From contig NZ_CP026362.1 in the NCBI RefSeq assembly GCF_004116955.1, positions 2,163,677 to 2,203,676 on the forward strand: DNA of 40,000 bases, given 5' to 3'. Source of the stretch: Bacillus vallismortis. GTDB lineage: Bacteria; Bacillota; Bacilli; Bacillales; Bacillaceae. Position 1 is the stretch's first letter. Each line of letters begins with the position of its first letter. Positions 141-14,295 of this stretch are shown here, piece after piece. The position numbers and the translations under genes were made by a program. Under the pieces are notes generated by a model. That model did no database searches, was not told the origin of the DNA, and saw nothing but the letters and a program-made list of their open reading frames with translations.

Positions 141-1034
141 TTAGCTTAATTGCGCTGCAATCTTCGCTTTAGTCGCCGGTCCGTAAATACCGTCGGCCGC
201 TAAACCGTTAACAGACTGGAAACGCGCAATCGCATCAGCCGTTTTCGGTCCGTAAATGCCATCAATTCCGTTGTCGGCAGCTTCTTTATCAGGGTAAAAA
301 TGAAGAGCGGCCAGTGCTCGCTGCACCTGAAAGACGTGTTCCCCTGAGGTGTAAGGCGTTGTCAGTTTGATGATACCGTCCGGGAGCGGATAAAGCTCTG
401 GTTCTTCAGCGTTCGATGGCGCACTTACAAGTAACACTTGACCGACCTGAATGAGATTCGGGTCTTCAATATGATTCCATTCTTGCAGCTGAGCAACAGT
501 CACACCGAACGCTCTCGCTATGGAGGTAAGCGTGTCACCCTGTTTCACGACATAGGTTTGGCTGCCGCCTCCCCCAATCCCTGCTTTAAATGTATCCCAC
601 GTAGCCAACAGCCGGCGCGGACATTCCTTCCCAGACCAGTACTTATGAGGGACGACATTGGCAAGACTGATCTTGTGCTCAGCCATTAATGTTTTGATAA
701 GCCACTGGGCATTTGCTGTTGCTTGTGCGAAATCTCCATCCGCATTTTCACAAATTTCAATCCCGATAGAAGCCCGGTTGCCGCTGCCGTTTCCGTCTCC
801 CGCATGCCAGCCGTTTTCATTTAATGGCAAATGCTGATAAATGTCTGTATCATCAACAGTAAAATGCCAGCTTGTCGCCGTATCAGGATTTTTCAAATAG
901 CGGGCATGCGCCTCAGCATCCGCTCCGGGTGCAGTGTTCGCTGTATTATGAACTGTAATAAAAAGCGGTGTCATGAGGTAGCCAGGACGGTTATTTGCCC
1001 CGACTGGAATAAAGTCTTGAATCACGTTCAGCAT
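141..1034 (-). CDS. xlyA: N-acetylmuramoyl-L-alanine amidase (PBSX endolysin)
   Basis: Track ORF 141..1040. Amidase_2 motif GWHAGDGNGSGNRASIGIEICEN, a LysM (YVVKQGDTLTSIARAFGV), and C-terminal PG-binding repeats (GIDGIYGPKT, DGIYGPATK). Start moved to ATG 1034 (AAGGAGAG-N6-ATG), giving 297 aa. Confidence 0.93.
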   Translation of the reverse strand: MLNVIQDFIPVGANNRPGYLMTPLFITVHNTANTAPGADAEAHARYLKNPDTATSWHFTVDDTDIYQHLPLNENGWHAGDGNGSGNRASIGIEICENADGDFAQATANAQWLIKTLMAEHKISLANVVPHKYWSGKECPRRLLATWDTFKAGIGGGGSQTYVVKQGDTLTSIARAFGVTVAQLQEWNHIEDPNLIQVGQVLLVSAPSNAEEPELYPLPDGIIKLTTPYTSGEHVFQVQRALAALHFYPDKEAADNGIDGIYGPKTADAIARFQSVNGLAADGIYGPATKAKIAAQLS

Positions 1035-1046
1035 GTTCAACTCTCC

Positions 1047-1310
1047 TTATTTCGTCAAATTATTTTCCTTTAACAAGTCACGCTGTTTTTTCCCTTTTTC
1101 TGTTACATAGTTGTTTTTAAACCAAGCGGCTAGTGTCGTTCCAATTGTAAAAATGAGAGAGACTGCAGTATAGAGAGCGTCCGCAAGCTGATTGACCTGC
1201 TCCTCCTGAATGCCCAATGGTGATTTGCCAAACATCAGCATGGTTTGGTTAATGAATGCAACCAAAAGAAGCACCGTCCTGATGACCGTGCCTTTGTCAT
1301 ACGTTTTCAT
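1047..1310 (-). CDS. xhlB: Holin
   Basis: Track ORF 1047..1316. Small two-TM protein ([31 protein letters not shown]) between xhlA and xlyA. The SD AAAGGAGG favours the second ATG, giving 87 aa. Confidence 0.88.
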
Positions 1311-1325
1311 ATTCATAATCCTCCT

Positions 1326-1595
1326 TTACTGCTGCAGCAGGTTGTACATAATCGCGATGGCTCCGCCAATGATCCCTGTGCATACCGCTGTAATCATGGC
1401 ACCTGTGATGGTGCGTTTAATCCACGTTGTATTTTCATCAATTTTATTTAATTTCTCGTTCAGCGTCATGATCTGCTGATCTTGCCGGTCAGACACGCGT
1501 TCTAATACGGAAACCCGCTGCTCAAGCGCTTTGTGTTCACCCTTTATGTCTGTTAAATCTTGCTGAAACACATTCACATCAACTTCTTGCTGCAT
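1326..1595 (-). CDS. xhlA: Membrane-associated lysis protein acting with the holin
   Basis: 89 aa. Coiled-coil N-terminus and a C-terminal TM segment (ITGAMITAVCTGIIGGAIAIMY). SD AAGGGGGAG-N6-ATG. Lies in the PBSX lysis-cassette position. Confidence 0.88.
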   Translation of the reverse strand: MQQEVDVNVFQQDLTDIKGEHKALEQRVSVLERVSDRQDQQIMTLNEKLNKIDENTTWIKRTITGAMITAVCTGIIGGAIAIMYNLLQQ

Positions 1596-1647: not shown

Positions 1648-2487
1648 TTACGAAACCACAGTTCCCTTTACTGAAAGAATCCCGCCTGTGATATTGGCAA
1701 TCTCCATGATAATCTCCTTAAACCCTTTAATATCAAAGGCCCACGCCTCAGCTTTCCCTAACGTACCCAAGGCAGTGGACGCATCCTCGGATTTCACGCC
1801 TCTTATCGGAAGTTTCTGCCCCGACAGCGATTTACCCCAAAACTTCACCTCACTCGTTTCCGCTGTGCCGTATACTTCAACGAGTAAATGCTCGGCACCG
1901 TTCACAAGTAAAGCAGCACCTTCGCCGGCGGAATCGGCATTTTCATGAAAGACAAAGTCAAACGTGTTGCCGGCTTTTACTTTCAGCAAGCCATCGTCTG
2001 TCTGAATCGTCGAAAAGTCAACCTGCAAAGGGGCTTTTTCACTTACTCGCACATCCATTTCTCCCGCGCCTACTGATTGATAGACTGCAAATTCCGATTG
2101 CTGAAGGTTCCCATTTACATAACGGAAGCGGTAATAGCGTTTAGACAGATATACCCAGTCCGTCTCCGTCAGGACACCAGCTGAGACATTAACTGCTGCT
2201 GTCGTTGTCCAAACATTGTTATTCTCGCTTTCTTCCACAAAGAGCGTGCCTTCGCGATCAGCATACGCCCAGCCCTTTACTTTCGAAATCAGAACGGCGC
2301 CCAGTCTGTCTTGTCCGAGCTGACTATATGCCTCAGTTGCCTTTAAGGCAGCGTTCGTTAAAATCTCCGCAACACCTGACAAATTCGAAACAGGTGTCAC
2401 AAAATCATTTTTCTCTCCTCTGTAGGGCTTTACAGCTCCGGCTTTTCCAGTCTTATCGAGAGGAAATTCGTATTGATACTTCACCAT
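1648..2487 (-). CDS. xepA: PBSX exported/lysis-associated protein XepA
   Basis: Track ORF 1648..2493. Position between xkdX and xhlA. Second ATG chosen (AAGGAGG-N6-ATG), giving 279 aa. Confidence 0.88.
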   Translation of the reverse strand: MVKYQYEFPLDKTGKAGAVKPYRGEKNDFVTPVSNLSGVAEILTNAALKATEAYSQLGQDRLGAVLISKVKGWAYADREGTLFVEESENNNVWTTTAAVNVSAGVLTETDWVYLSKRYYRFRYVNGNLQQSEFAVYQSVGAGEMDVRVSEKAPLQVDFSTIQTDDGLLKVKAGNTFDFVFHENADSAGEGAALLVNGAEHLLVEVYGTAETSEVKFWGKSLSGQKLPIRGVKSEDASTALGTLGKAEAWAFDIKGFKEIIMEIANITGGILSVKGTVVS

Positions 2488-2530
2488 CTTCATCCTCCTT
2501 TTGTTCTAAAAACAGGCAAAATAAAAAAGC

Positions 2531-2695
2531 CTACATGGCTTTACCGGTAATTTCTTTATACTGGTCAGGAGTAATCAGCTTTTTGTTCACACCCTCTGCC
2601 AGATCCTCAATTGAACAGTCTTGATATGCGATGGCCTGTCTCACCATCTCCGTTGTCGCCCACTCAAAATGCAAGGCAAGCACCCAATAATTCAT
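2531..2695 (-). CDS. xkdX: XkdX-family small phage protein (54 aa), not in the ORF track because it is under 60 aa
   Basis: Hand translation: MNYWVLALHFEWATTEMVRQAIAYQDCSIEDLAEGVNKKLITPDQYKEITGKAM*. The ATG overlaps the xkdW stop (ATGA). The C-terminal ITxxQYKEITG motif is typical of the XkdX family. Confidence 0.75.
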   Translation of the reverse strand: MNYWVLALHFEWATTEMVRQAIAYQDCSIEDLAEGVNKKLITPDQYKEITGKAM

Positions 2696-3021
2696 TCGGC
2701 ATGATCTCCTTTCAAGGAAAGTAATGAAAGCTTGATATCTGACAGCTCGCTCCCCAATGTTTTGTTCAACTCTTCAAGCTGCTTGCGAGCCAGCTTTTCC
2801 TGCGACAATGCCTGAGCAAGAAACTCAATCTGATTAGGCGGATCGTACGGCGGATTTTTTCGTGATTCCTCCCACCAGGATTCGAGTTCTTTTTGCGTTG
2901 GGATGGGGGTGCGCAGGTTCCATTCAGCTATATAAGACCCTTCCCCGTCATTTTGAACGATAAAATCTTTTGTTGGATCTGTATTGGGATATTTATACAT
3001 GATTGCTTCTGCGATCATCAT
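2692..3021 (-). CDS. xkdW: PBSX protein XkdW (tail-fibre associated, function unknown)
   Basis: Track ORF, 109 aa, immediately downstream of the tail-fibre gene. SD AGGAGG. The second ATG at 3018 is equally possible. Confidence 0.85.
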   Translation of the reverse strand: MMIAEAIMYKYPNTDPTKDFIVQNDGEGSYIAEWNLRTPIPTQKELESWWEESRKNPPYDPPNQIEFLAQALSQEKLARKQLEELNKTLGSELSDIKLSLLSLKGDHAE

Positions 3022-3035
3022 TTTTCCTCCTATAC

Positions 3036-5093
3036 TTATACTGTAGGATAGTTAAGCCCTCCAATTTCTTGAATGTTTATAAAATTGTATGCCTCGTTAT
3101 AATCGGATACACCTCTTCTATCACTACCACCATAGTTGCAATAGCAATAGATCTCTATATAATCACCTTTGTTCATAGGAACAGTTACATAACCATTTAA
3201 GCCAAGGTACATTTCATTTTGCTTATCAACAAAATCCCCTCTCTTATGGTCAACCGGTTTATACAATGATCCATTTAGATAGAGTTTCAAATGAAAATTG
3301 ATGTATGCCGGTGTATTTATCATATACAGCCCAACTCCTACTAAAAACATTCCATCATTAGGAGCAACGAATCTACTATTTTTTGTATCAAAAGCATTGT
3401 GACTGTCTTTAATTTTCCGATTAAACTGAATCTTTGTATGGGCTGCTTTATCCAAATACTGAATACCCGTAGTTCCTATATTCGCATGTGCAAACCCAGA
3501 AATTTTATGCCAAGCTGTCCAGCCGGAACCAGTCCACCAGTGCCGTATCCATGTTCCAGTACTATGAATGTAACTGTCAGATTCATTTCCAGTCCCATAA
3601 AAATATTGAGTAAATCTATAATCATGATATTTCTCATTTTTTACGATTCCGTAACCAAATGGATAACCCGTAGTATTTCCTTGACCAACATCCATTAGTG
3701 TTAGCCCTCGGGGATATTCATTTCCTCCAGTTCTTGCGTCTTGAATTGCATTAGAGCCTGTAAGTATCGTTAAATTTTGATTTGTATAATTTGTATCAAC
3801 ATAGTTTTTAGCATCAGCTAAGGCTTTATCTGCTTTACTTTGTGAACCTTCTGATGTTTCTAACACATACCAATCAGAATAATCAGTACTATTAACAGCT
3901 ACCCTCGTATAAAGAGTTTTCGTAGAGATGCTAAACCAATCTTGGCGTGTAGCCCATTTATTTGCAGAAGGATAGATAATTAGTAAACCTGTTCTGTTAT
4001 CATTGCTCGGAAATTGATTTTGCAAAACTGGATTAGCTACCATGTAATTAGTGTCTAAGCGATAAGTGCCCGGCGGCAGGCTCAGATCATTCGCATCGGT
4101 TATTGAATTTAATGGTCTAGTAATAAAGGCTGTACTGTTCGTATAATTTCTTGATTGGTTCAAAGCAGTATCAGCTTTTTTTTGCGCACCATCAGGCGTT
4201 TCCTGCTTAACATTTTCAACATTTCCGAGACCCACTTGCTGCTTAGTAACTGAATGTGGATTAGTTTTATCATTATTATGAATATCTAATCCAGATTGTA
4301 CTTTATCCACAATATCCGTTGTTGCAATTTGTTTCCAGCCTCTAAACTCACCGTTTGTGTGAACCATTCCAATCCACATTGTAATTCCCCAACTCTGATA
4401 AGCTACTATCGTTTTCCTTCCTGCAACACCTTCTATGATATCGTAGTTATACCAAGATGCATCTCCTTCCACCGGATTGTTTACGACTGATTTACCAACC
4501 CCATAATAAAATCCAGTAGGTAGCGTTAAGATATCAGTACTTTCTGGGATTAGTGTTCTTTTACCATCATCTCCAGTAAGTTTAATTAGTTGTGCAGCAT
4601 TCCATTTATTTCTTTCATTATCAGATATATGAGACTTAGTATTACTTACATGAGCATCAAAATCTGTTTGCGAAGCTTGTTTCACATTTTCTACATTTCC
4701 AAGTCCAATTTGTGCTTTTGTTACTTGGTTAGGGTTATCCCTCCGTGCAGCAAAACTGTCTGTATAGGCTTTGGCATTTGCTTCTGCTTGAGCTGCTTTA
4801 ACCTGAGCTCCAACTGGTGTTTCTTTCGCATTCCATTCACCACGTTCTGCTGATGTAATATGGCGCACCTGATCTTGCTCATGCTTGTCAAAATCCTTCT
4901 TCGCCGCCTGCTGCACGTTTTCCACATTCCCCAGCCCGACTTGCGCCTTTGTTGTGTTGTGGGGGTTGTTCATGTCGTTTTTGTGGGCTGCCAGGTCTGT
5001 GTGGGCGTCTTTTATGCCTTTTTCCCAGCGGTTGACGTCATCTTCGTTGATTGGATCATCCGGGAGCCAGTCTGTTTTTTCTTCGTATGCCAT
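3036..5093 (-). CDS. xkdV: Tail fibre / receptor-binding protein, 685 aa
   Basis: Three NPxxxTKxQ(V/I)GLGNVENV collar repeats, repeated GAQxKA..AKxY motifs, and a C-terminal C1q-like domain. SD GAGGTGGTG-N5-ATG. Confidence 0.9.
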   Translation of the reverse strand: MAYEEKTDWLPDDPINEDDVNRWEKGIKDAHTDLAAHKNDMNNPHNTTKAQVGLGNVENVQQAAKKDFDKHEQDQVRHITSAERGEWNAKETPVGAQVKAAQAEANAKAYTDSFAARRDNPNQVTKAQIGLGNVENVKQASQTDFDAHVSNTKSHISDNERNKWNAAQLIKLTGDDGKRTLIPESTDILTLPTGFYYGVGKSVVNNPVEGDASWYNYDIIEGVAGRKTIVAYQSWGITMWIGMVHTNGEFRGWKQIATTDIVDKVQSGLDIHNNDKTNPHSVTKQQVGLGNVENVKQETPDGAQKKADTALNQSRNYTNSTAFITRPLNSITDANDLSLPPGTYRLDTNYMVANPVLQNQFPSNDNRTGLLIIYPSANKWATRQDWFSISTKTLYTRVAVNSTDYSDWYVLETSEGSQSKADKALADAKNYVDTNYTNQNLTILTGSNAIQDARTGGNEYPRGLTLMDVGQGNTTGYPFGYGIVKNEKYHDYRFTQYFYGTGNESDSYIHSTGTWIRHWWTGSGWTAWHKISGFAHANIGTTGIQYLDKAAHTKIQFNRKIKDSHNAFDTKNSRFVAPNDGMFLVGVGLYMINTPAYINFHLKLYLNGSLYKPVDHKRGDFVDKQNEMYLGLNGYVTVPMNKGDYIEIYCYCNYGGSDRRGVSDYNEAYNFINIQEIGGLNYPTV

Positions 5094-5095
5094 GG

Positions 5096-5368
5096 TTACA
5101 CCACCTCAAAAGTAAATCTGAAATCGAGTGTTCTGTTTTCGCTGACGTCCAGGTCTGTTTTTCTCTCTGTGATCACGTTGCCCAGTTCGTCAAAAATTTG
5201 CACCGTTTCGATATGTTTGATGTCTTCCTCACGTTTTGTCAGAACGGTGACTGTCGCTCCGTCAATGGTGAGTTCTACTATTTCTGTTTTTTGTCCGTTC
5301 AGCAGCACGTGATCAATTCTGCTTTTTAAATCTGCCGCTGTACGTTCTCTGTATATGGTTGAAATCAA
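5096..5368 (-). CDS. Small baseplate/tail-fibre-proximal protein (90 aa)
   Basis: Track ORF. TTG start with SD GAGGTGG-N7. Overlaps the xkdU stop (TTGA) and ends 2 nt before the xkdV ATG, so it appears translationally coupled. Confidence 0.7.
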
Positions 5369-5943
5369 GTTAAAACCACCTCATTGTTGTTAAGGGTGAC
5401 CGAATAACCGACCTTCAGCTCACTGGCTGTTCGGTATCTGCGGTTATTCAGGATGACTGTGTCTTTGATTTGTAGCGTCTCGTTCAATCCGCCTCTGAGC
5501 GTATACGCCAAATGAGCGGGCTTCATGTTTTCTATCGCTTCAATCAGCTCATTCATGTGCTGAAGGTCATCAACATTGATATCCACATTAAATCGGTATT
5601 CGCCGGGCAGCAGGCGGACCTGTGCAGAGGGGTTCTTCAAGAAACGATTCACCGCCTGCTCAATGGCCTTGTAGGTGATTGGCGGAATGTTCGACATTTT
5701 TGAAATGAGACGCAGTCGCCTGATCTCATCCGTATCGCCTGATTCCCGCGGGACGTTTAAAATCTTTTCCCAGCGGCTGAGCCCCCATGTCGCTGTCGGC
5801 ACAAATAGCTGATCAGTCAGATCAAAGATGCTGTGATTCTGTTGATCAAACTCAGGCGCCTCCGCTTTCAACAGCTCAGCCATTTCTTTCAGGCTGGTGA
5901 GAAACGGCGGCAGATACGCTGTCATGTCATCTTGTTTGCTCAA
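5365..5943 (-). CDS. xkdU: Baseplate protein (P2 gpI-like)
   Basis: Track ORF, 192 aa, TTG start. Synteny after the baseplate-J gene. Confidence 0.82.
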
Positions 5944-6973
5944 TGATGTTCACCTGCCCAAGCTTCGGAATTTCCACGTCGCTCAGCACGAGATTTTCCG
6001 AGGTTCCATTGATTTTAATATTGGAATAATCACTGACTGACGGTGAATTATAGACGATATTGTTAATTTGAGAAAGGCGGATGACGTTCTCTTCAAACGC
6101 CATTTTCTTAAAGAGGTTTAAAACCCCCTCTTTGATTTCCGACTTTACTTCTTCAATTGAGTGATTGATCTCAGGCAGCACTTCGGCAGAAATCTCAACT
6201 TCCTTCCAGACCGCGCTTTCGACTGTGACATAGGCTCCAATTGGCGCCTGTCCCTCACCCTGTCCCGGTTCAGGATCAATATAATCTTTCACTTTTTGTA
6301 TCAAGATATCGGAAGCGGGCTCAAGATTCACATTCGTGACGACGATTTTGACCGTGCCCTCTCCCTTCCAAAGCGGAAAGATCTTTGCTTTCCCAATACC
6401 GTCCACCTCTTCAGCCCACTCTTTATAGTGCATTTTGTTAGCGCTGACAGCCTCGCGCCGAACTCTTGTAAAATACCGTTCTCTTAGGCTGTCGTCTCCT
6501 TCTTCCTCTCGACCCGGGATTAGGATTTCTTTAACAATGGCTGTCTCTAATCCGGGAATGGTATCCAGCGACAATAAATTGCGTCCAGTCAGATTGGCGT
6601 TTCCCGCTTCACCAGGTGTTTCACAGATGAGCGTTCCATCTGCCGTATATTGAAAATAAAGATGATCCACATAAAAGCGGGAGCCCACAGGAATGGTAAC
6701 GCCAGACGTAAACTCTCCCGCTCTGACCGCCTTTGTCGCGGCTGTCCGTTCAATCCCCGCTTCCGCTGCGCGCCGGTCTAAAAATTCGCCTTGGGCGGTA
6801 TCAGAAAAGACCAGCTCGAGCACGGTGTCCAGCCATATATACGACTTCGCAAGCTCGGCTGCCGCCGGAGCTAACGCATTATAGATAACGCTTCCTTCTC
6901 TTGTGTCAATATCTGCGGAAATGCTGTTCAGCATGCGTTCCATAATATTTTCAAAAGTCTGCTCCTCAAACAT
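5927..6973 (-). CDS. xkdT: Baseplate J-like protein
   Basis: Track ORF 5927..6982. Start moved to ATG 6973 (GGAGGTGA-N9-ATG), giving 348 aa, the size I recall for XkdT. Confidence 0.88.
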
Positions 6974-7391
6974 CTGCACCAATCACCTCCTCAATCTCAA
7001 GCGCCCCTTCATCTGTCTCCACCACAAAGGAAACATGAAACGCATCACCTTGTTTTTCTATCTCAAAATTTGTTACAGCAGATATCCGGTCGTCATAAAC
7101 CAGTGCCTCTTCAATTAGCCTCGGAATCTCCATTTTTTTATAGGCATCTGTCGTTTCATGGTCTGTCAGCACGTCCTGAAGCTCATTTCCGACATTATGG
7201 CTGTACACCGAATACGAATAGCGTTCTGTTTGTAAGGCGATATACACGAATTGTCTGATCGCTTCAAGCCCGGTAATCAGTTCATTTGTAATTCTTCCGT
7301 TTACAAAATCTATTTTGTATGTTTGCGAGGTTTCAATGACGTCACTTTCATCCTCAAAATCCTCAAACTCCATTTCTGGTGTCAGGGCCAT
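6966..7391 (-). CDS. xkdS: Baseplate wedge protein
   Basis: Track ORF 6966..7400. Start moved to ATG 7391 (AAAGGAG-N8-ATG), giving 141 aa. Confidence 0.85.
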
Positions 7392-8708: not shown

Positions 8709-9368
8709 TCATTGCGGTATCTTTAATTTTTGGCCGGGAAAAATCCAGTGCCCCGGCTGCCTGATGTTCCGTTTGCTCCGTTTGATCATTGCAGTTTTAT
8801 TGGCGTTCCAAATTTTGCGCCATTGCGTGCTCTTCCCATAAAACCTGCCGGCAATGTCCCACAGCGTATCTCCCTTTTTTACGGTGTAGGTTTTGGGAGA
8901 CGCCTTCGACGGGCGTTTTGCCTTAGTTTTTTTCTTCTGCTTGATTTTTCGGGGGGAAGCGGTTTTGTATTCTTTCAGGACGATATCAAAATCCCTATCT
9001 CCTATCTCTTTGTCCCCTTCACTGTATTTAAGGCTTTCAATGCTGCATGTCATATTGATTTTTGTTCCCGTAATTAAAAATTGGACAGGCTTTTTAGCCT
9101 TCATCCATTTTTCAATTTTCGCAATGGCATTCTCAGGAGACGGTAAATTTTGATATTCAGCTATCGGTGTATACTTTTTTGGAAAAAAAGAAGAAAATGA
9201 AATTTCTTTCGCTCCAGGTTCTTCAATAAACGTTAGTTCTCCCAGACCTGTAATCTTTACTGAGTCATTCTGTACACTATTTGCTATATCAATTGCTTCG
9301 GGAAGAACAGGAAACCGCAGCTTTTCCTTCCCCTGTGATATCCAAAATTCATAAACAGACTTAGTCAA
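8709..9368 (-). CDS. xkdP: LysM-domain tail protein
   Basis: C-terminal LysM ([18 protein letters not shown]...GQKLKIP). TTG start with SD AAGGGGG-N9. Overlaps the xkdO end by 8 nt. Confidence 0.85.
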
Positions 9369-12300
9369 AAGCTACGACCCCCTTTGTTCCGGTGTTTATG
9401 TCTTTTTGTAACTCATCAAGCAATGCCTGCTTAATTTTCGCTACTAGGCTGTCAGCGTCCTGTCCATTATGGAAATGCTGATCGCCGTTAAACTCAATCT
9501 TAATTTCTTTCGTTCCGGCCGTTTGGATCGTTTGCCGGGTTCCAGAGGTAACGGCTGAAACTTGGCCTGAAGAAAGCTCAGGCTGCTGGGATTGAGATGG
9601 ATCTGTCACTTCCATTCCCAGTGCTTGCGCCGCTTTCTGAAGGAGGTAGCGGCCGCGGATGCCCCGCTCCTCAGGAATGATCCATTCCCGCTTGTTTCCT
9701 TCACCGACACGGGCGATTTGCTCTTTTGTAATCAGTCCGCCGTTGGCATAACCGACGTACGGACCGCCACGTTTCAAGCTTTTAATACCAGGTACATTGT
9801 CAATTGAACCGTATCTGCTTTTGATATATCCTATAGCGGCAGCAGCGTTGTGAATCGGATTTTTAATGTTACCCATACCCGGTGCTTTATGAGCATTGAA
9901 TGTGGTCGGAACTGTCTGCATCAGACCTTGCGATGGATTCCCTGCCTTCGCGTTACTATCCCAAAGGTTAATAGAGTTAGGATTGCCCCCTGATTCATAC
10001 TGTGCAATCGTCATTAATCCTGAAAGCCAGCTTAATGGTGTTTTTGTGGCCATCATTGCAGCCATAAGCCACTGCTTCACATTTCCGCCTACTGCACCCA
10101 TTCCGGAATAAGCAGCCGCCAGTGATCCAGCTTGCTTTTCAGCATATTTTTTCACATCGACAGAATCCAGACCTTTTACAACACCTACAGAGGCAAAGCG
10201 ACCGAGACTCATCATAACTCGAGAAGGCGAATGAATATCTAGCTCTTCACGGAATGCCTTTTCAACTTTTTTCGCGAGTTCCTTGGCAGCTTCATGAACG
10301 TCACTTGCCTTAGAAGTCATACCTGAAACAAAATTCCCGATCATGCCGCTGCCCCAGCCGTTTGAGGATTCCTTCGAACGGACAAACGGTTTATTCACAT
10401 GAGTATTCACGTACTGATCAGTGCCAGTTTGTGAACTATTTTGACCCGAAGCAAACCCTTTGATCGTACCAGTTCCCCATGAAGAGGATTTATTCACAGT
10501 GTTCTGGAATGGTGTTTTGACTTTCGTCTGCAAATAGCCGTCTGTACCGGTTGCAGTGCCGTTTTGACCCTTGGCATACCCGCTTACCATTTGTTTACCG
10601 TAATTGGGTGAAGCAGAAATCATTTGTGTAAATGGCGTATTGATGTTTTTCTTTTTCCAGTCTTCCATATTGACCGGCTCTTTGCTGATGCCTTTGCCAA
10701 TGCCTTCTGAAAATTGCTGTCCGAGTGCGGACGCTTGGCCTGTAAGATTTGCAGTGTCCATTGATGGAGAAGTTGATCCTGATAACGGGCTGGCAGCTGC
10801 TCTTCCCGAGACAGATACCGAACTTCCACCAGAAGACGAAGCGGCTCCCATGTCGTCTACGACTTGCATACCGAGTTTAGACGCCGCTTGTGAAAGAAGC
10901 ATTTTGCCACGGCCTCGGTTGTTATCAACAGGGATAACGAATTCCTTGCCGGCTTCACCGATCCATGAGATGGTTGGTTTGGTGATGTAACCGCCTGTGG
11001 CATTTTTATCCGGATCCTTACCTTTATCCGGATCTCCGCCGCCGGTTACAAAATTGATCACTTTACTAGCTACGCCGCCAGCTTTATCCCAAATTTTCTT
11101 CACCCAGCCGAACGCTTTAGAAAAAGCATCTGAGATGGCTTCTCCAACCTTTGCAAGAGGTTCTTGGATATTCTTTTTAAACCAGCCGCTCAGACCCTTC
11201 CATATCTTCTTGACGGTATCTATTGCTTTTTGGAAAGCGTCAGAAATTCCCTTGCCTACATCTGAGACTGTATTTTTGACCGGGTTCCAAACTGTATTCA
11301 TGAACCATCCCGATACTGTACTGAAAACACTCTTAATCTTATTCCATGCACCAGTCATTTTATCCCAGATTGTGGTTGCCGCTCCGATAACAGCGGATTT
11401 TACTGGCCCCCACACATTGCTCATAAACCAGGATGCAACTGCACTGAACACATTTTTAATCGTCGTCCATGCACCTATAATTTTAGACCAAATGGCTGTA
11501 GCCACACCGACAACCGCCGATGACACAGGTGTCCAGACATTGTCCATAAACCATGTGGATACGGTACTGAAAATGGTTTGTATCGTTGTCCATGCGTTTA
11601 CAATGTTTGACCATATGCTTGTAGCTACGCCCACAACTGCTGATGATACTGGCGTCCAGACATTATCCATAAACCATGTTGATACAGTTCCCCAAGTATC
11701 CTGAATGGCTGACCATGCACTTTGTGCCCCCTCTGTAATGCTGTTCCATGTATCATTTAGAGCGCCAGCATCAATTGCCTTACCTAAACTTTCTCCGCCG
11801 AAAGATCCTGCAATTCCTCCTATTGCACCGCCAATCACTGTCCCGACTCCCGGAACAACACTTCCAATTGCCGCTCCGGCTGCTGCTCCTGCTAGACCTC
11901 CGCCGGCTGAACCTACTTTTTCACCGGCATTATCCTTATTGATTCCGGCTAAGTCAGTAAGAGACAAGATTTCGCCTAATCCTGGGATTCCTTTCGCGGC
12001 TCCTTTTAAGCCCTTCAGTCCCCCCTTCAAACCTTTTGAACCTCCCAATGATTTCAGAAGACCTGAAAAACCTTTACCGGACGCGCCTTTAGCTGCTTTT
12101 GCGGATTTCGGTGTATTCACAGAATTTGTTTTATTGCCTTTCGTTGATGAACCGTTTCTGTTTTTGACTTTTTTGCTTTTGCCTGTACTGATTCCGGCAC
12201 AGCAGCATCCGCAAGCCCTGCCCCATTTTCCGCCTGACTTCTTCGATTTAGAGCCCGACGCTTTTTTGTTCATAGAAGGTTTTTTCGTGCGGTTTGAGTT

Positions 12301-14295
12301 GTTAGAAGTTGCGTTCTTTGTATTGGCTTTTGGTGCTTTTTGTTTCCCTTTGCTTCCGTTGGATTTTCCCCCAAGCAGACCACCAAAATCCAAATTCCCC
12401 AGTTTTTCAGCAATGCCTTTTATAATCTTTTCAAAAAACTCTCCCGCTTTTTCAATAATTTTATCAGGGCTGAATTTCTCAAATTTTTTCGCGATTTTGG
12501 AGACAATGTTATCAACAAACTTTTCCGCTTTATTGGCGATTTTATCCGGGTTCAGAAAATTAAATTTATCCGAGATTTTGTCAATGATATTCGTTACAAA
12601 GTCTTCTGCTTTCGTGATAATGGCATCGGGACTAAATTTGCTCACGATATCATCCACTTTTTTCATAAAGGACTCTGTAAATTTGTCCAATTCATTAAAA
12701 ATCGTTTCCGGGCTGAATTTACTTACGACATCGTCCACCTTTTTCATAAAGGACTCTGTAAATTTGTCCAGCTGCTTAAAAATGGCTTCAGGACTGAATT
12801 TACTTGCGATTTCGTCTACTTTTTTCATAAATGAGCCTGTAAACTTATCCAGCTGCTTAAAAATGGCTTCTGGGCTGAATTTGCTTGCGATTTCGTCTAC
12901 TTTTTTCATAAATGAGCCTGTAAACTTATCTAGCTGTTTAAAAATGGCTTCAGGACTGAATTTACTTGCGATTGCATCTACTTTCTTCATAAAAGAGCCT
13001 GTAAACTTATCCAGCTGTTTTAGAATCGTTTCCGGACTGAACTTTGTCGCAATCGCATCAACCTTACTCATGAACGATGTTGTGAACTTATCCAGTTGTG
13101 CTAGAATTGTCTCCGGACTGAACTTCGTTGCGATTGCATCCACTTTTCCCATAAATGATGTTGTGAACTTATCCAGTTGTGCCACAATTGTCTCCGGACT
13201 GAACTTTGTTGCGATTGCATCCACCTTACTCATCAACGATGTTGTAAACTTATCCAGCTGGGACAGAATCGTTTCTGGGCTGAACCTTGTCGCAATTGCA
13301 TCCACTTTTCCCATAAATGATGTTGTGAACTTATCCAGTTGTGCCACAATTGTCTCCGGACTGAACTTTGTTGCGATTGCATCCACTTTACTCATGAATG
13401 ATGTTGTGAACTTGTCCAGCTGAGTTAACATTGTTTCCGGGCTGAATTTTGTCGCAATCGCATCCACCTTATTCATGAACGATGTTGTAAATTTATCCAG
13501 CTCTGTTAAGATTGTTTCCGGGCTGAATTTTGTGGCGATGTCATCCACTTTTTCCATGAATGATGCAGCAAATTTGTCCAGTGCTGTCAAAATCGGTTCT
13601 GGATCAAACATGCTTGCAATACCACCGGCATTTCCTCCGGTTGAAGGAGCTGCTTTGTCGGGTGAATCTGAGCTTCTTCCCATGCTGTCAATTCTTTTCT
13701 GCAAGGAATCCAGCTTACCTGATACCTTGTCATTAATAGCCAGCTCCAATTTGTTGTCTTTTCCTGTTAAGGCATCAATACCTGCTGAAATGCGACCGAC
13801 TGTTTTCATGACGTGATCAATCACGCGTATCGTAACAGAGTAGCCACTTTGAAGTGCGTTTTGCATATAACGCTGTATTTTTTGAACAGCCGGCGAAATT
13901 TGGTCTTCTGCACTCAGCATGATCGTAAATCCTTTAAATCCCGCAACGAGCTCTCTTAATCGTTCAAACTTTGCTGTTGCTCGGTCATTGGCGCCAATTT
14001 TAATAGATACCGATGCCGGCAATCCCTGCAATTGAGTTTGAACCTTCTGAATGACAGTGCTGGCATCATCCTCAGCCGAAATGGAAATCATTTGGGCGCC
14101 AAGCTTTTTCTTTAATGATTTTTGTATGCGGTCAATTGTCCTTAACACACTTTTGCTCTCTTTTCGTATATCGATAGCCCTATTTCGCTGCGTTACTTTT
14201 CTATACTTTTCAAGCGCTCTAAATCCATTTTGTATCTTTCTTAACTTTTTGCTTACACGGTCTTCCATCTCAAATCTTGCTGTCAGCTTTGCCAA
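9361..14295 (-). CDS. xkdO: Tape measure protein with C-terminal lytic transglycosylase domain, 1644 aa
   Basis: Position after the chaperone genes. Two internal tandem-repeat families, a Gly-rich hydrophobic segment, and an SLT motif ([30 protein letters not shown]). TTG start with SD AGGAGGGG. Confidence 0.9.
11071..11754 (-). repeat. About 5.5 tandem in-frame 123-bp (41-codon) Trp-rich repeats within xkdO
   Basis: Residues ~848-1075. Unit S(T/G)WFMxNVWxPVxSAVxGxATxIWxxxxxAWxxIxxxFSTV. Confidence 0.85.
12394..13608 (-). repeat. 15 tandem in-frame 81-bp (27-codon) repeats within xkdO
   Basis: Protein residues 230-634 with FSPE at 257, 284, 311 ... 527. Consensus [27 protein letters not shown]. 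Twelve copies are well conserved and three are degenerate. Confidence 0.9.

Follow-up and report, generated by a model that had tools for sequence, protein, structure and literature searches.

The locus analyzed here is the tail-fibre gene xkdV of a PBSX-like defective phage (tailocin), whose late operon lies on the minus strand of a 40,000-nucleotide (nt) stretch of Bacillus vallismortis DNA (contig NZ_CP026362.1, positions 2,163,677 to 2,203,676; hereafter the window, with coordinates counted from its first letter). The closest described relatives of its product are PBSX XkdV of B. subtilis 168 and the homologues of PBSZ (strain W23), PBP180 (B. pumilus), and the skin element, which share the same xkdT-xlyA gene order and, in precomputed annotation, the XkdV_N domain. 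XkdV has been described as the fibre subunit involved in killing (PMC9406221), and two regions, xkdO and the “end fragment” of xkdV, are reported to vary among PBSX elements of B. subtilis (bioRxiv 10.1101/2024.07.03.601884). Gram-negative tailocins (R-type pyocins, Pectobacterium carotovoricin, and those of P. syringae) resemble this system in having a fixed site, a conserved fibre N terminus, and a hypervariable distal fibre, and also in that fibre types disagree with the species tree and homologous recombination has been inferred (PMC13195805, PMC12208367); carotovoricin fibres are exchanged by recombination across the genus Pectobacterium (PMC13195805), and P. syringae tailocin fibres vary with the target O-antigen (PMC12208367). 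The window differs from them in its Gram-positive host, and no sequence relationship was found. In phages, domain shuffling affects receptor-binding proteins above all (Smug et al. 2023, PMC10684548), and both there and in Gp15 of Listeria phage PSA (PDB 6R5W, chimeric fibres) the modules are likewise joined at conserved helices; these, however, are replicating phages, whereas the pool represented in the window appears to reside chiefly in defective, PBSX-like elements within the B. subtilis group.

Against this background, the AT-rich part of XkdV is very probably a modular fibre exchanged by recombination among the PBSX-like loci of the B. subtilis group. In a PBSX-like phage-tail bacteriocin, XkdV would serve as the trimeric tail fibre that binds the receptor, and its first 70 to 88 residues would attach the fibre to the baseplate, being conserved and evolving with the rest of the element. 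The distal part would consist of exchangeable modules divided by alpha-helical linkers with the motif ET[PS]xG[AS]QxKA...Y, namely, a middle shaft with knobs (residues 89-413), a stalk (residues 414-563), and a C1q/TNF-like head, whose variable half (residues 564-685) would travel with codons 1-37 of xkdW, the next gene downstream. The features of the fibre gene are as follows (GC3, guanine-plus-cytosine [GC] content at third codon positions; AF2, AlphaFold2; pLDDT, predicted local distance difference test score).

3036-5093, minus strand: xkdV, PBSX tail-fibre/receptor-binding protein gene (685 residues; stop codon 3036-3038), assigned from its open reading frame (ORF), synteny, and PHROG tail-fibre matches
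4884-5093, minus strand: N-terminal anchor module, residues 1-70, with GC-rich host-like codons (GC3 0.65 for codons 1-77)
4829-4883, minus strand: 5' junction zone, codons 72-89, where a homology break and a GC3 break fall
4824-4976, minus strand: collar repeat unit 1, residues 40-90, with GLGNVENV at residues 53-60 (4914-4937); GC-rich codons, GC3 0.59
4746-4829, minus strand: Ala-rich linker helix L1, residues 89-116 (AKETPVGAQVKAAQAEANAKAY...), first copy of the ET[PS]xG[AS]QxKA motif and start of the variable region
4593-4745, minus strand: collar repeat unit 2, residues 117-167, with GLGNVENV at residues 130-137 (4683-4706); AT-rich codons, GC3 0.16
4308-4568, minus strand: knob 1, a beta-rich domain, residues 176-262 (AF2 pLDDT about 60 to 81, strands at 194-257)
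4197-4277, minus strand: collar repeat 3, residues 273-299, with GLGNVENV at residues 288-295 (4209-4232); AT-rich codons, GC3 0.26
3855-4829, minus strand: middle module of type M4, residues 89-413, comprising L1, collar unit 2, knob 1, collar unit 3, linker L2, and beta domain 2
3405-3854, minus strand: semi-conserved stalk module, residues 414-563, beginning with linker helix L3 (SEGSQSKADKALADAKNY)
3060-3494, minus strand: C-terminal head domain, residues 534-678, predicted to be a C1q/TNF-like jelly roll (AF2, Foldseek)
2911-3404, minus strand: tip cassette of type T1, made up of XkdV residues 564-685, a 14-nt spacer, and xkdW codons 1-37

Nowhere in the 40 kb is the DNA as AT-rich as in distal xkdV. 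The GC content in 300-nt windows is 33 to 40% at about 3000-4800 versus 44 to 52% in the flanks, and 1791-nt windows over this segment are the lowest of the entire stretch (36.1 to 36.9%, against a mean of 45.1% with a standard deviation of 2.8). The GC3 value of xkdV, 0.29, is likewise the lowest of 37 ORFs, the others ranging from 0.39 to 0.60. Both measures uphold the low-GC segment reported in a preliminary description of this DNA, and the profile is not uniform. A maximum-likelihood GC3 change point falls at codon 77 (window about 4862), with a support interval of 2 log-likelihood units spanning codons 66 to 79; GC3 is 0.65 before it and 0.24 after it, and none of 2000 permutations (0/2000) reached the observed likelihood ratio. 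The step had been placed at about 4740. It is real, but at codon level it lies about 120 nt further 5' in the gene, since the Ala-rich L1 helix has high GC at first and second codon positions (GC1 and GC2) despite its low GC3 (0.17 to 0.23), which masks the boundary in hand counts of total GC.

The low GC content might simply follow from amino-acid composition (Asn, Tyr, Lys, Thr, and Ile) or from chance, independently of the history of the region. The translated fibre is indeed rich in N, Y, and T, and GC1 is 0.46 in distal xkdV versus 0.64 in the proximal part, yet this explanation is scarcely credible. The GC3 step, which the permutations never equalled, coincides with a homology breakpoint; moreover, over the 27 residues that are identical in collar units 1 and 2, GC3 is 0.56 versus 0.11, so the shift is one of codon choice and not of amino-acid composition, and this synonymous-site comparison refutes the compositional account. 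The collar repeats (DNA repeats at 4888-4967, 4657-4736, and 4204-4251) had earlier been described as GC-rich in codon usage in the first copy and AT-rich in the second and third, which is confirmed, and their coordinates match.

A total of 23 loci with PBSX-type elements were compared, comprising those of conspecific strains, 16 from one-per-species genomes, and others carrying chosen alleles; individual loci are given as L numbers. Distal xkdV is of low GC in 20/20 related loci checked (16 of them from the one-per-species records), with GC of 0.35 to 0.44 and GC3 of 0.24 to 0.44, while the first 88 xkdV codons of the same loci have GC3 of 0.35 to 0.67 and the flanks GC of 0.39 to 0.48. The contrast is weaker in the velezensis/siamensis clade. 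In PBSX-like and prophage loci of IMG/VR, the distal fibre is AT-richer than its surroundings in nearly all of the cases examined. Because all 20 related loci share the low GC content, it is a mark of a shared module pool rather than of recent foreign acquisition. Judged from sequence, AT-richness would be a property of that pool, whichever species or element carries the modules, and AT-rich modules throughout the pool would thus produce the sharp GC3 step.

These data bear directly on the idea, put forward in the preliminary description, that a single foreign receptor-binding cassette came from a low-GC donor in one recent event and was joined at the second GLGNVENV repeat. Such an event would explain the sharp drop in GC, the AT-rich codons of collar repeats 2 and 3, and the fact that conspecific strains differ distally. 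It is nevertheless very unlikely, because the related loci are all equally AT-rich in distal xkdV at the same position, and no close phage copy turned up: megablast of positions 2600-5500 against phage records gave no match, and tblastn against phages together with two IMG/VR scans for a low-GC donor returned only PBSX-like or prophage loci, with no close copy in a replicative phage. The best tblastn phage matches were the defective B. pumilus phage PBP180 (C-terminal 250 residues, 57%) and SPbeta-type collars (30 to 45%); the fibres of SPbeta (YomR), SP-10, PM1, and other B. subtilis phages match the collar/linker region at 30 to 63%. The junctions and the divergence of the modules, described below, speak against a single cassette as well. 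A classical foreign genomic island was also considered and rejected, since, although the composition is atypical, the AT-rich segment occupies the same site in 20/20 related loci, and neither a donor, nor a tRNA in the window, nor flanking repeats beyond the internal collar repeats were found.

Breakpoints were defined as positions where homology stops or restarts in alignments against the window (ends of high-scoring segment pairs [HSPs], binned patterns, and mismatch maps), and they cluster at 4800-4889, 3810-3869, 3330-3509, and 3000-3089. In two other B. vallismortis genomes (L001 and L004), both flanks are 94 to 98% identical to the window and distal xkdV is unalignable; three different xkdV alleles occur within this species. 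As proposed earlier, it is the AT-rich segment of the PBSX tail fibre that recombines, and this segment would also bind the receptor. The 5' homology stops at 4800-4889 in 18/19 distinct patterns, with HSPs ending at 4829-4882 and divergence beginning at codon 72 or codon 81 in the mismatch maps. At this junction the first collar unit ends and the Ala-rich helix begins. The earlier placement of the junction at a collar repeat therefore holds insofar as it falls inside a collar unit, but the unit is the first (4829-4883) and not that at 4650-4736; L006 is the only locus in which homology runs to 4650, the end of the second collar unit. None of the three copies of GLGNVENV carries a homology breakpoint in the compared loci, and the motif was rejected as a crossover point. 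The alignment of alleles thus went against the preliminary description in finding the low-GC segment in all 20 relatives and agreed with it in finding breakpoints, although these lie off the repeat motifs.

Upstream of the junction, the anchor (residues 1-70) shows DNA identities of 93 to 98% in the subtilis clade and 76 to 88% in more distant loci (22 loci), at or above those of neighbouring genes, and residues 1-88 are 80 to 94% identical in nearly all full-length alleles. Downstream of it, homology restarts at 3810-3869 (residues 414-420) in 12 distinct patterns. Six loci that share the stalk and tip of the window (L005, L007, L009, L020, L021, and L023) regain homology at 3836-3860 and keep it past the stop codon, and the middle module is replaced in these six as well as in L001 and L004. 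Alleles that share the middle, by comparison, lose homology again at 3330-3509: L022 is homologous from upstream to 3339 and departs only over the tip, and L010 aligns throughout, with tip identity falling to 59%. Since middle and tip homologies stop and restart separately, there are at least three modules, and what had been regarded as one cassette gives way to exchangeable modules, among which the types of middle and tip are reshuffled. The recurring linker motif lies at the breakpoints, as do predicted helices at residues 93-119 and 414-435; the first of these helices begins AKETPVGAQ, and the third copy of the motif, SEGSQSKADKAL, marks codons 414-420.

A positional parse of 114 full-length homologues distinguished 16 middle types and 4 tip types in many combinations. 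Module types diverge to 20 to 50% amino-acid identity between types, whereas the stalk (residues 441-560) is 55 to 92% identical in all alleles and knob 1 is common to several otherwise different alleles at 52 to 74%. The window protein and its 99.6% sibling are the only homologues in this set to pair M4 with T1. M4 itself occurs in B. cabrialesii, B. subtilis, B. mexicanus, and B. atrophaeus, and alleles annotated as B. subtilis or B. cabrialesii have the same middle type as the window, with 77 to 93% amino-acid identity over residues 89-440; the tip of the window (residues 561-685), of the T1 type that is also found with other middles, is only 44 to 53% identical to theirs. The DNA of M4 is 87 to 89% identical in B. 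mexicanus (L010) and B. cabrialesii (L022), where the flanks are 85 to 93% identical. As its divergence is similar to that of the flanks, the middle module of the window is not recent, and with the low GC of 20/20 related loci and the lack of a close phage copy, the claim of recent acquisition from a low-GC donor falls; the junctions at 4829-4883 instead of 4650-4736 and the independent exchange of several modules count against the single cassette in the same way.

Recent exchange is, by contrast, visible at the tip. The window and L021 (a Logan assembly) differ at 3 positions over 494 nt (3404-2911, XkdV codon 564 through XkdW codon 37) and at 65 positions over the adjoining 843 nt on both sides (7.7%; P about 3e-13). 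On this sequence evidence, the 494-nt tract spanning the xkdV stop codon represents a recent exchange. The 3' limit had been set at that stop codon, but the tip unit reaches beyond it into xkdW codons 1-37. The window allele would accordingly be a chimera in which a 168-like M4 middle has diverged in step with the flanks and a T1 tip, together with the 5' end of xkdW, has been exchanged recently.

The same comparisons could be read as an ancient trans-species polymorphism under balancing selection, in which the flanks were homogenized within species and no module was actually transferred between genomes. The deep divergence of the module types (20 to 50% amino-acid identity), the presence of the same types in several species, and the divergence of M4 roughly in step with the flanks all suit this explanation, but it is unlikely overall, because the 494-nt tract with its 3 differences, set between sequences differing by 7.7%, indicates recent transfer of a sub-module, and the many middle/tip combinations need repeated intragenic recombination. 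Balancing selection is compatible with modular exchange among PBSX-like loci as the force that maintains diversity and is no substitute for exchange.

Replacement of the modules would proceed by homologous recombination, for which the conserved flanks (xkdU and the 5' end of xkdV on one side, the 3' part of xkdW and xepA on the other) and the internal linker and stalk could serve as substrates; members of the B. subtilis group would probably take up the DNA by natural transformation. The expected consequence would be a changed target-cell specificity.

Small downstream genes for cognate chaperones co-vary with the fibre tip in R-pyocins and phage P2. Unlike in the Gram-negative tailocins, co-variation with the tip is confined here to the first third of the downstream gene. 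Over 3040-2921 (xkdW codons 1-34), loci with a different tip are 61 to 77% identical to the window, rising to 80 to 96% in the next bin, and tip-sharing loci are 90 to 100% identical. Among 52 distinct tip/XkdW pairs, tip identity correlates with that of XkdW residues 1-37 (Spearman 0.78) more than with that of the rest of XkdW (0.38), and 13/13 distinct “GGLNYPTV” tips are paired with one XkdW N-terminal type. The N terminus in the window is of the “IAEA/DPTKDFIV” type, as opposed to the “LYDA” type of strain 168. GC3 in xkdW rises from 0.38 over codons 1-37 to 0.51 over codons 38-109, and the latter behave like conserved flank. We know of no assigned function for XkdW (2HG7). The protein matches the solved structure of its 168 counterpart (PDB 2HG7, 3.9e-50), with differences concentrated in residues 1-37. 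We tentatively suggest, as one possibility, that these residues pair with the variable half of the C1q-like head in a specificity-matched way, XkdW acting as a chaperone, cap, or adaptor; XkdW would then be a tip-matched assembly partner. If true, the 494-nt unit (2911-3404) would be a natural minimal cassette for retargeting PBSX-type particles.

Larger replacements were also observed around xkdW. In L006 (B. inaquosorum) and L008 (B. halotolerans), homology to the window breaks off at the xkdV junction and stays absent as far as about 1561-1581, inside xhlA; in L015 to L017 (velezensis/siamensis clade), the gap reaches from the junction to about 2440-2530, inside xepA. In all five loci, the entire block of distal xkdV and xkdW is of another type. 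In L008 and L016, an unrelated protein of 118 to 123 residues replaces XkdW, and the fibre ends in “...NVxGYYxDxVxALx”.

The AF2 model of the full-length monomer places helices at residues 93-119, 300-315, and 414-435, one at each of the three linker motifs, and a beta knob at about 180-260. A second model of residues 414-685 confirmed the C-terminal domain, with pLDDT of 77 to 96 over residues 534-678. In Foldseek searches against the PDB, the head matched C1q domains of Cbln1, C1QL, and Caprin-2 (template modeling [TM] scores of 0.7 to 0.8, E values down to 1e-8), and the matches include the phage receptor-binding heads 8ke9, 4l92, and 9eul. The XkdV tip is thus predicted to fold like a C1q/TNF jelly roll, as a C-terminal fold of about 130 to 145 residues; the receptor-binding domain of the R-pyocin fibre, in contrast, is described as having a lectin fold (PMC6363177). 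A sequence search of the PDB returned only one short match, between XkdV residues 63-112 and residues 6-55 of 6R5W (E 1.9e-6).

Collar units 1 and 2 form a 231-nt (77-residue) duplication (window 4593-4976). In alleles of 575 to 585 residues, query residue 109 aligns to subject residue 30, so that these alleles lack about 79 residues between the two units. Although they are not the main exchange points, the collars may allow the fibre to vary in length in register.

Several points weigh against modular exchange as set out above. It leaves the AT-richness of the module pool without a cause, and selection, rather than history, may keep the pool AT-rich across the clade. Comparison covered only 22 PBSX-type loci and about 80 from IMG/VR, always with the window as reference. 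The full-length AF2 model has a mean pLDDT of 54.7, and the boundaries drawn for domains other than the knob and head are approximate. Adjacency, and not function, could partly account for the way the tip co-varies with XkdW. Finally, the role of XkdV in determining the killing spectrum is taken from the statement in PMC9406221, and a link between the modules and that spectrum is plausible.

Programmed fibre switching by an invertase shufflon or a diversity-generating retroelement was considered and rejected, since no second copy or template is present in the window. Searches by blastn and tblastn with the AT-rich segment against the whole window for a silent or inverted copy found only the internal collar repeats, and in the window, where recombinase and reverse transcriptase genes were not searched for, only weak inverted repeats that could bound invertible segments were seen.

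The XkdV pattern is standard modular evolution of receptor-binding proteins and extends a known principle without changing it; as an expected evolutionary mode, it will not surprise tailocin specialists. In the searchable literature, little was found on the Gram-positive case, and the tip/xkdW unit, the detailed map of modules, and the AT-richness across the clade appear to be undescribed. Among the phage-tail weapons of the B. subtilis group, which includes widely used biocontrol and probiotic strains, PBSX-type particles are the main ones. For retargeting designs, natural junctions lie at codons 72-89, codon 414, and codon 564 of xkdV and at codon 37 of xkdW. In addition, the combination of middle type and tip type provides a typing scheme that can be compared with killing matrices and wall-teichoic-acid types, and the map offers a testable role for XkdW.

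The surrounding operon has the gene order xkdT-xkdU-90-residue ORF-xkdV-xkdW-xepA-xhlA-xhlB-xlyA, with xkdV following the baseplate genes xkdT and xkdU and preceding xkdW, as in the PBSX late operon. Pfam matches occur in the order Baseplate_J, Mu Gp48, XkdW, XhlA, SPP1 holin, and Amidase_2. The genes around xkdV are as follows.

5927-6982, minus strand: xkdT
5365-5943, minus strand: xkdU
5096-5368, minus strand: ORF of 90 residues between xkdV and xkdU
2692-3021, minus strand: xkdW, 109 residues (Pfam XkdW match, 1.6e-23)
1648-2493, minus strand: xepA
1326-1595, minus strand: xhlA
1047-1316, minus strand: xhlB
141-1040, minus strand: xlyA

The two B. vallismortis genomes with closely matching flanks (L001 and L004) carry the element at the same chromosomal site beside spoIISA/B, and together with L021 to L023 they have an identical gene order, adjoining spoIISA/B and a gene for a PHO4-family phosphate transporter. 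The window XkdV is 100% and 99.6% identical to B. vallismortis proteins with a precomputed Pfam match to PF27308 (XkdV_N); P0001, the identical protein, and every full-length homologue carry this match in their precomputed annotation. Scanning XkdV against Pfam-A and NCBIfam gave no family, and the family name derives solely from that annotation; the Pfam-A copy scanned may predate the PF27308 model. Homologues are mostly named “terminase” in NCBI and UniRef, and a few are named “pyocin knob domain-containing protein”; the former label is a propagated mis-annotation of a tail fibre.

A gene of the Acyl_transf_3 family of about 1.15 kb lies between xlyA and spoIISB in L001 (11349-12500) and L004 (about 10989-12140). 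The window lacks this gene of its conspecific strains (75-160, just beyond xlyA). It also occurs in L007, L010, L026, L028, L086, L089, and L097, alongside differing fibre types; an immunity gene tracking fibre type was considered and rejected, since it co-occurs with several types and shows no clean link. Elsewhere in the window, a second AT-rich patch (GC of 35 to 38%) is found at 9001-9450, at the xkdP/xkdO boundary, and a tape-measure ORF of 1644 residues spans 9361-14295. A second PBSX-like element, about 75% identical in DNA to the window, is present in L002, L003, and L012. In L002, it has a Phage_holin_4_1 holin and an adjacent LXG/HNH toxin with its immunity pair, and in B. vallismortis (L002 and L003), it carries a fibre allele of 576 residues. 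Given their overlapping fibre tip types, the second element and PBSX probably share one module pool.

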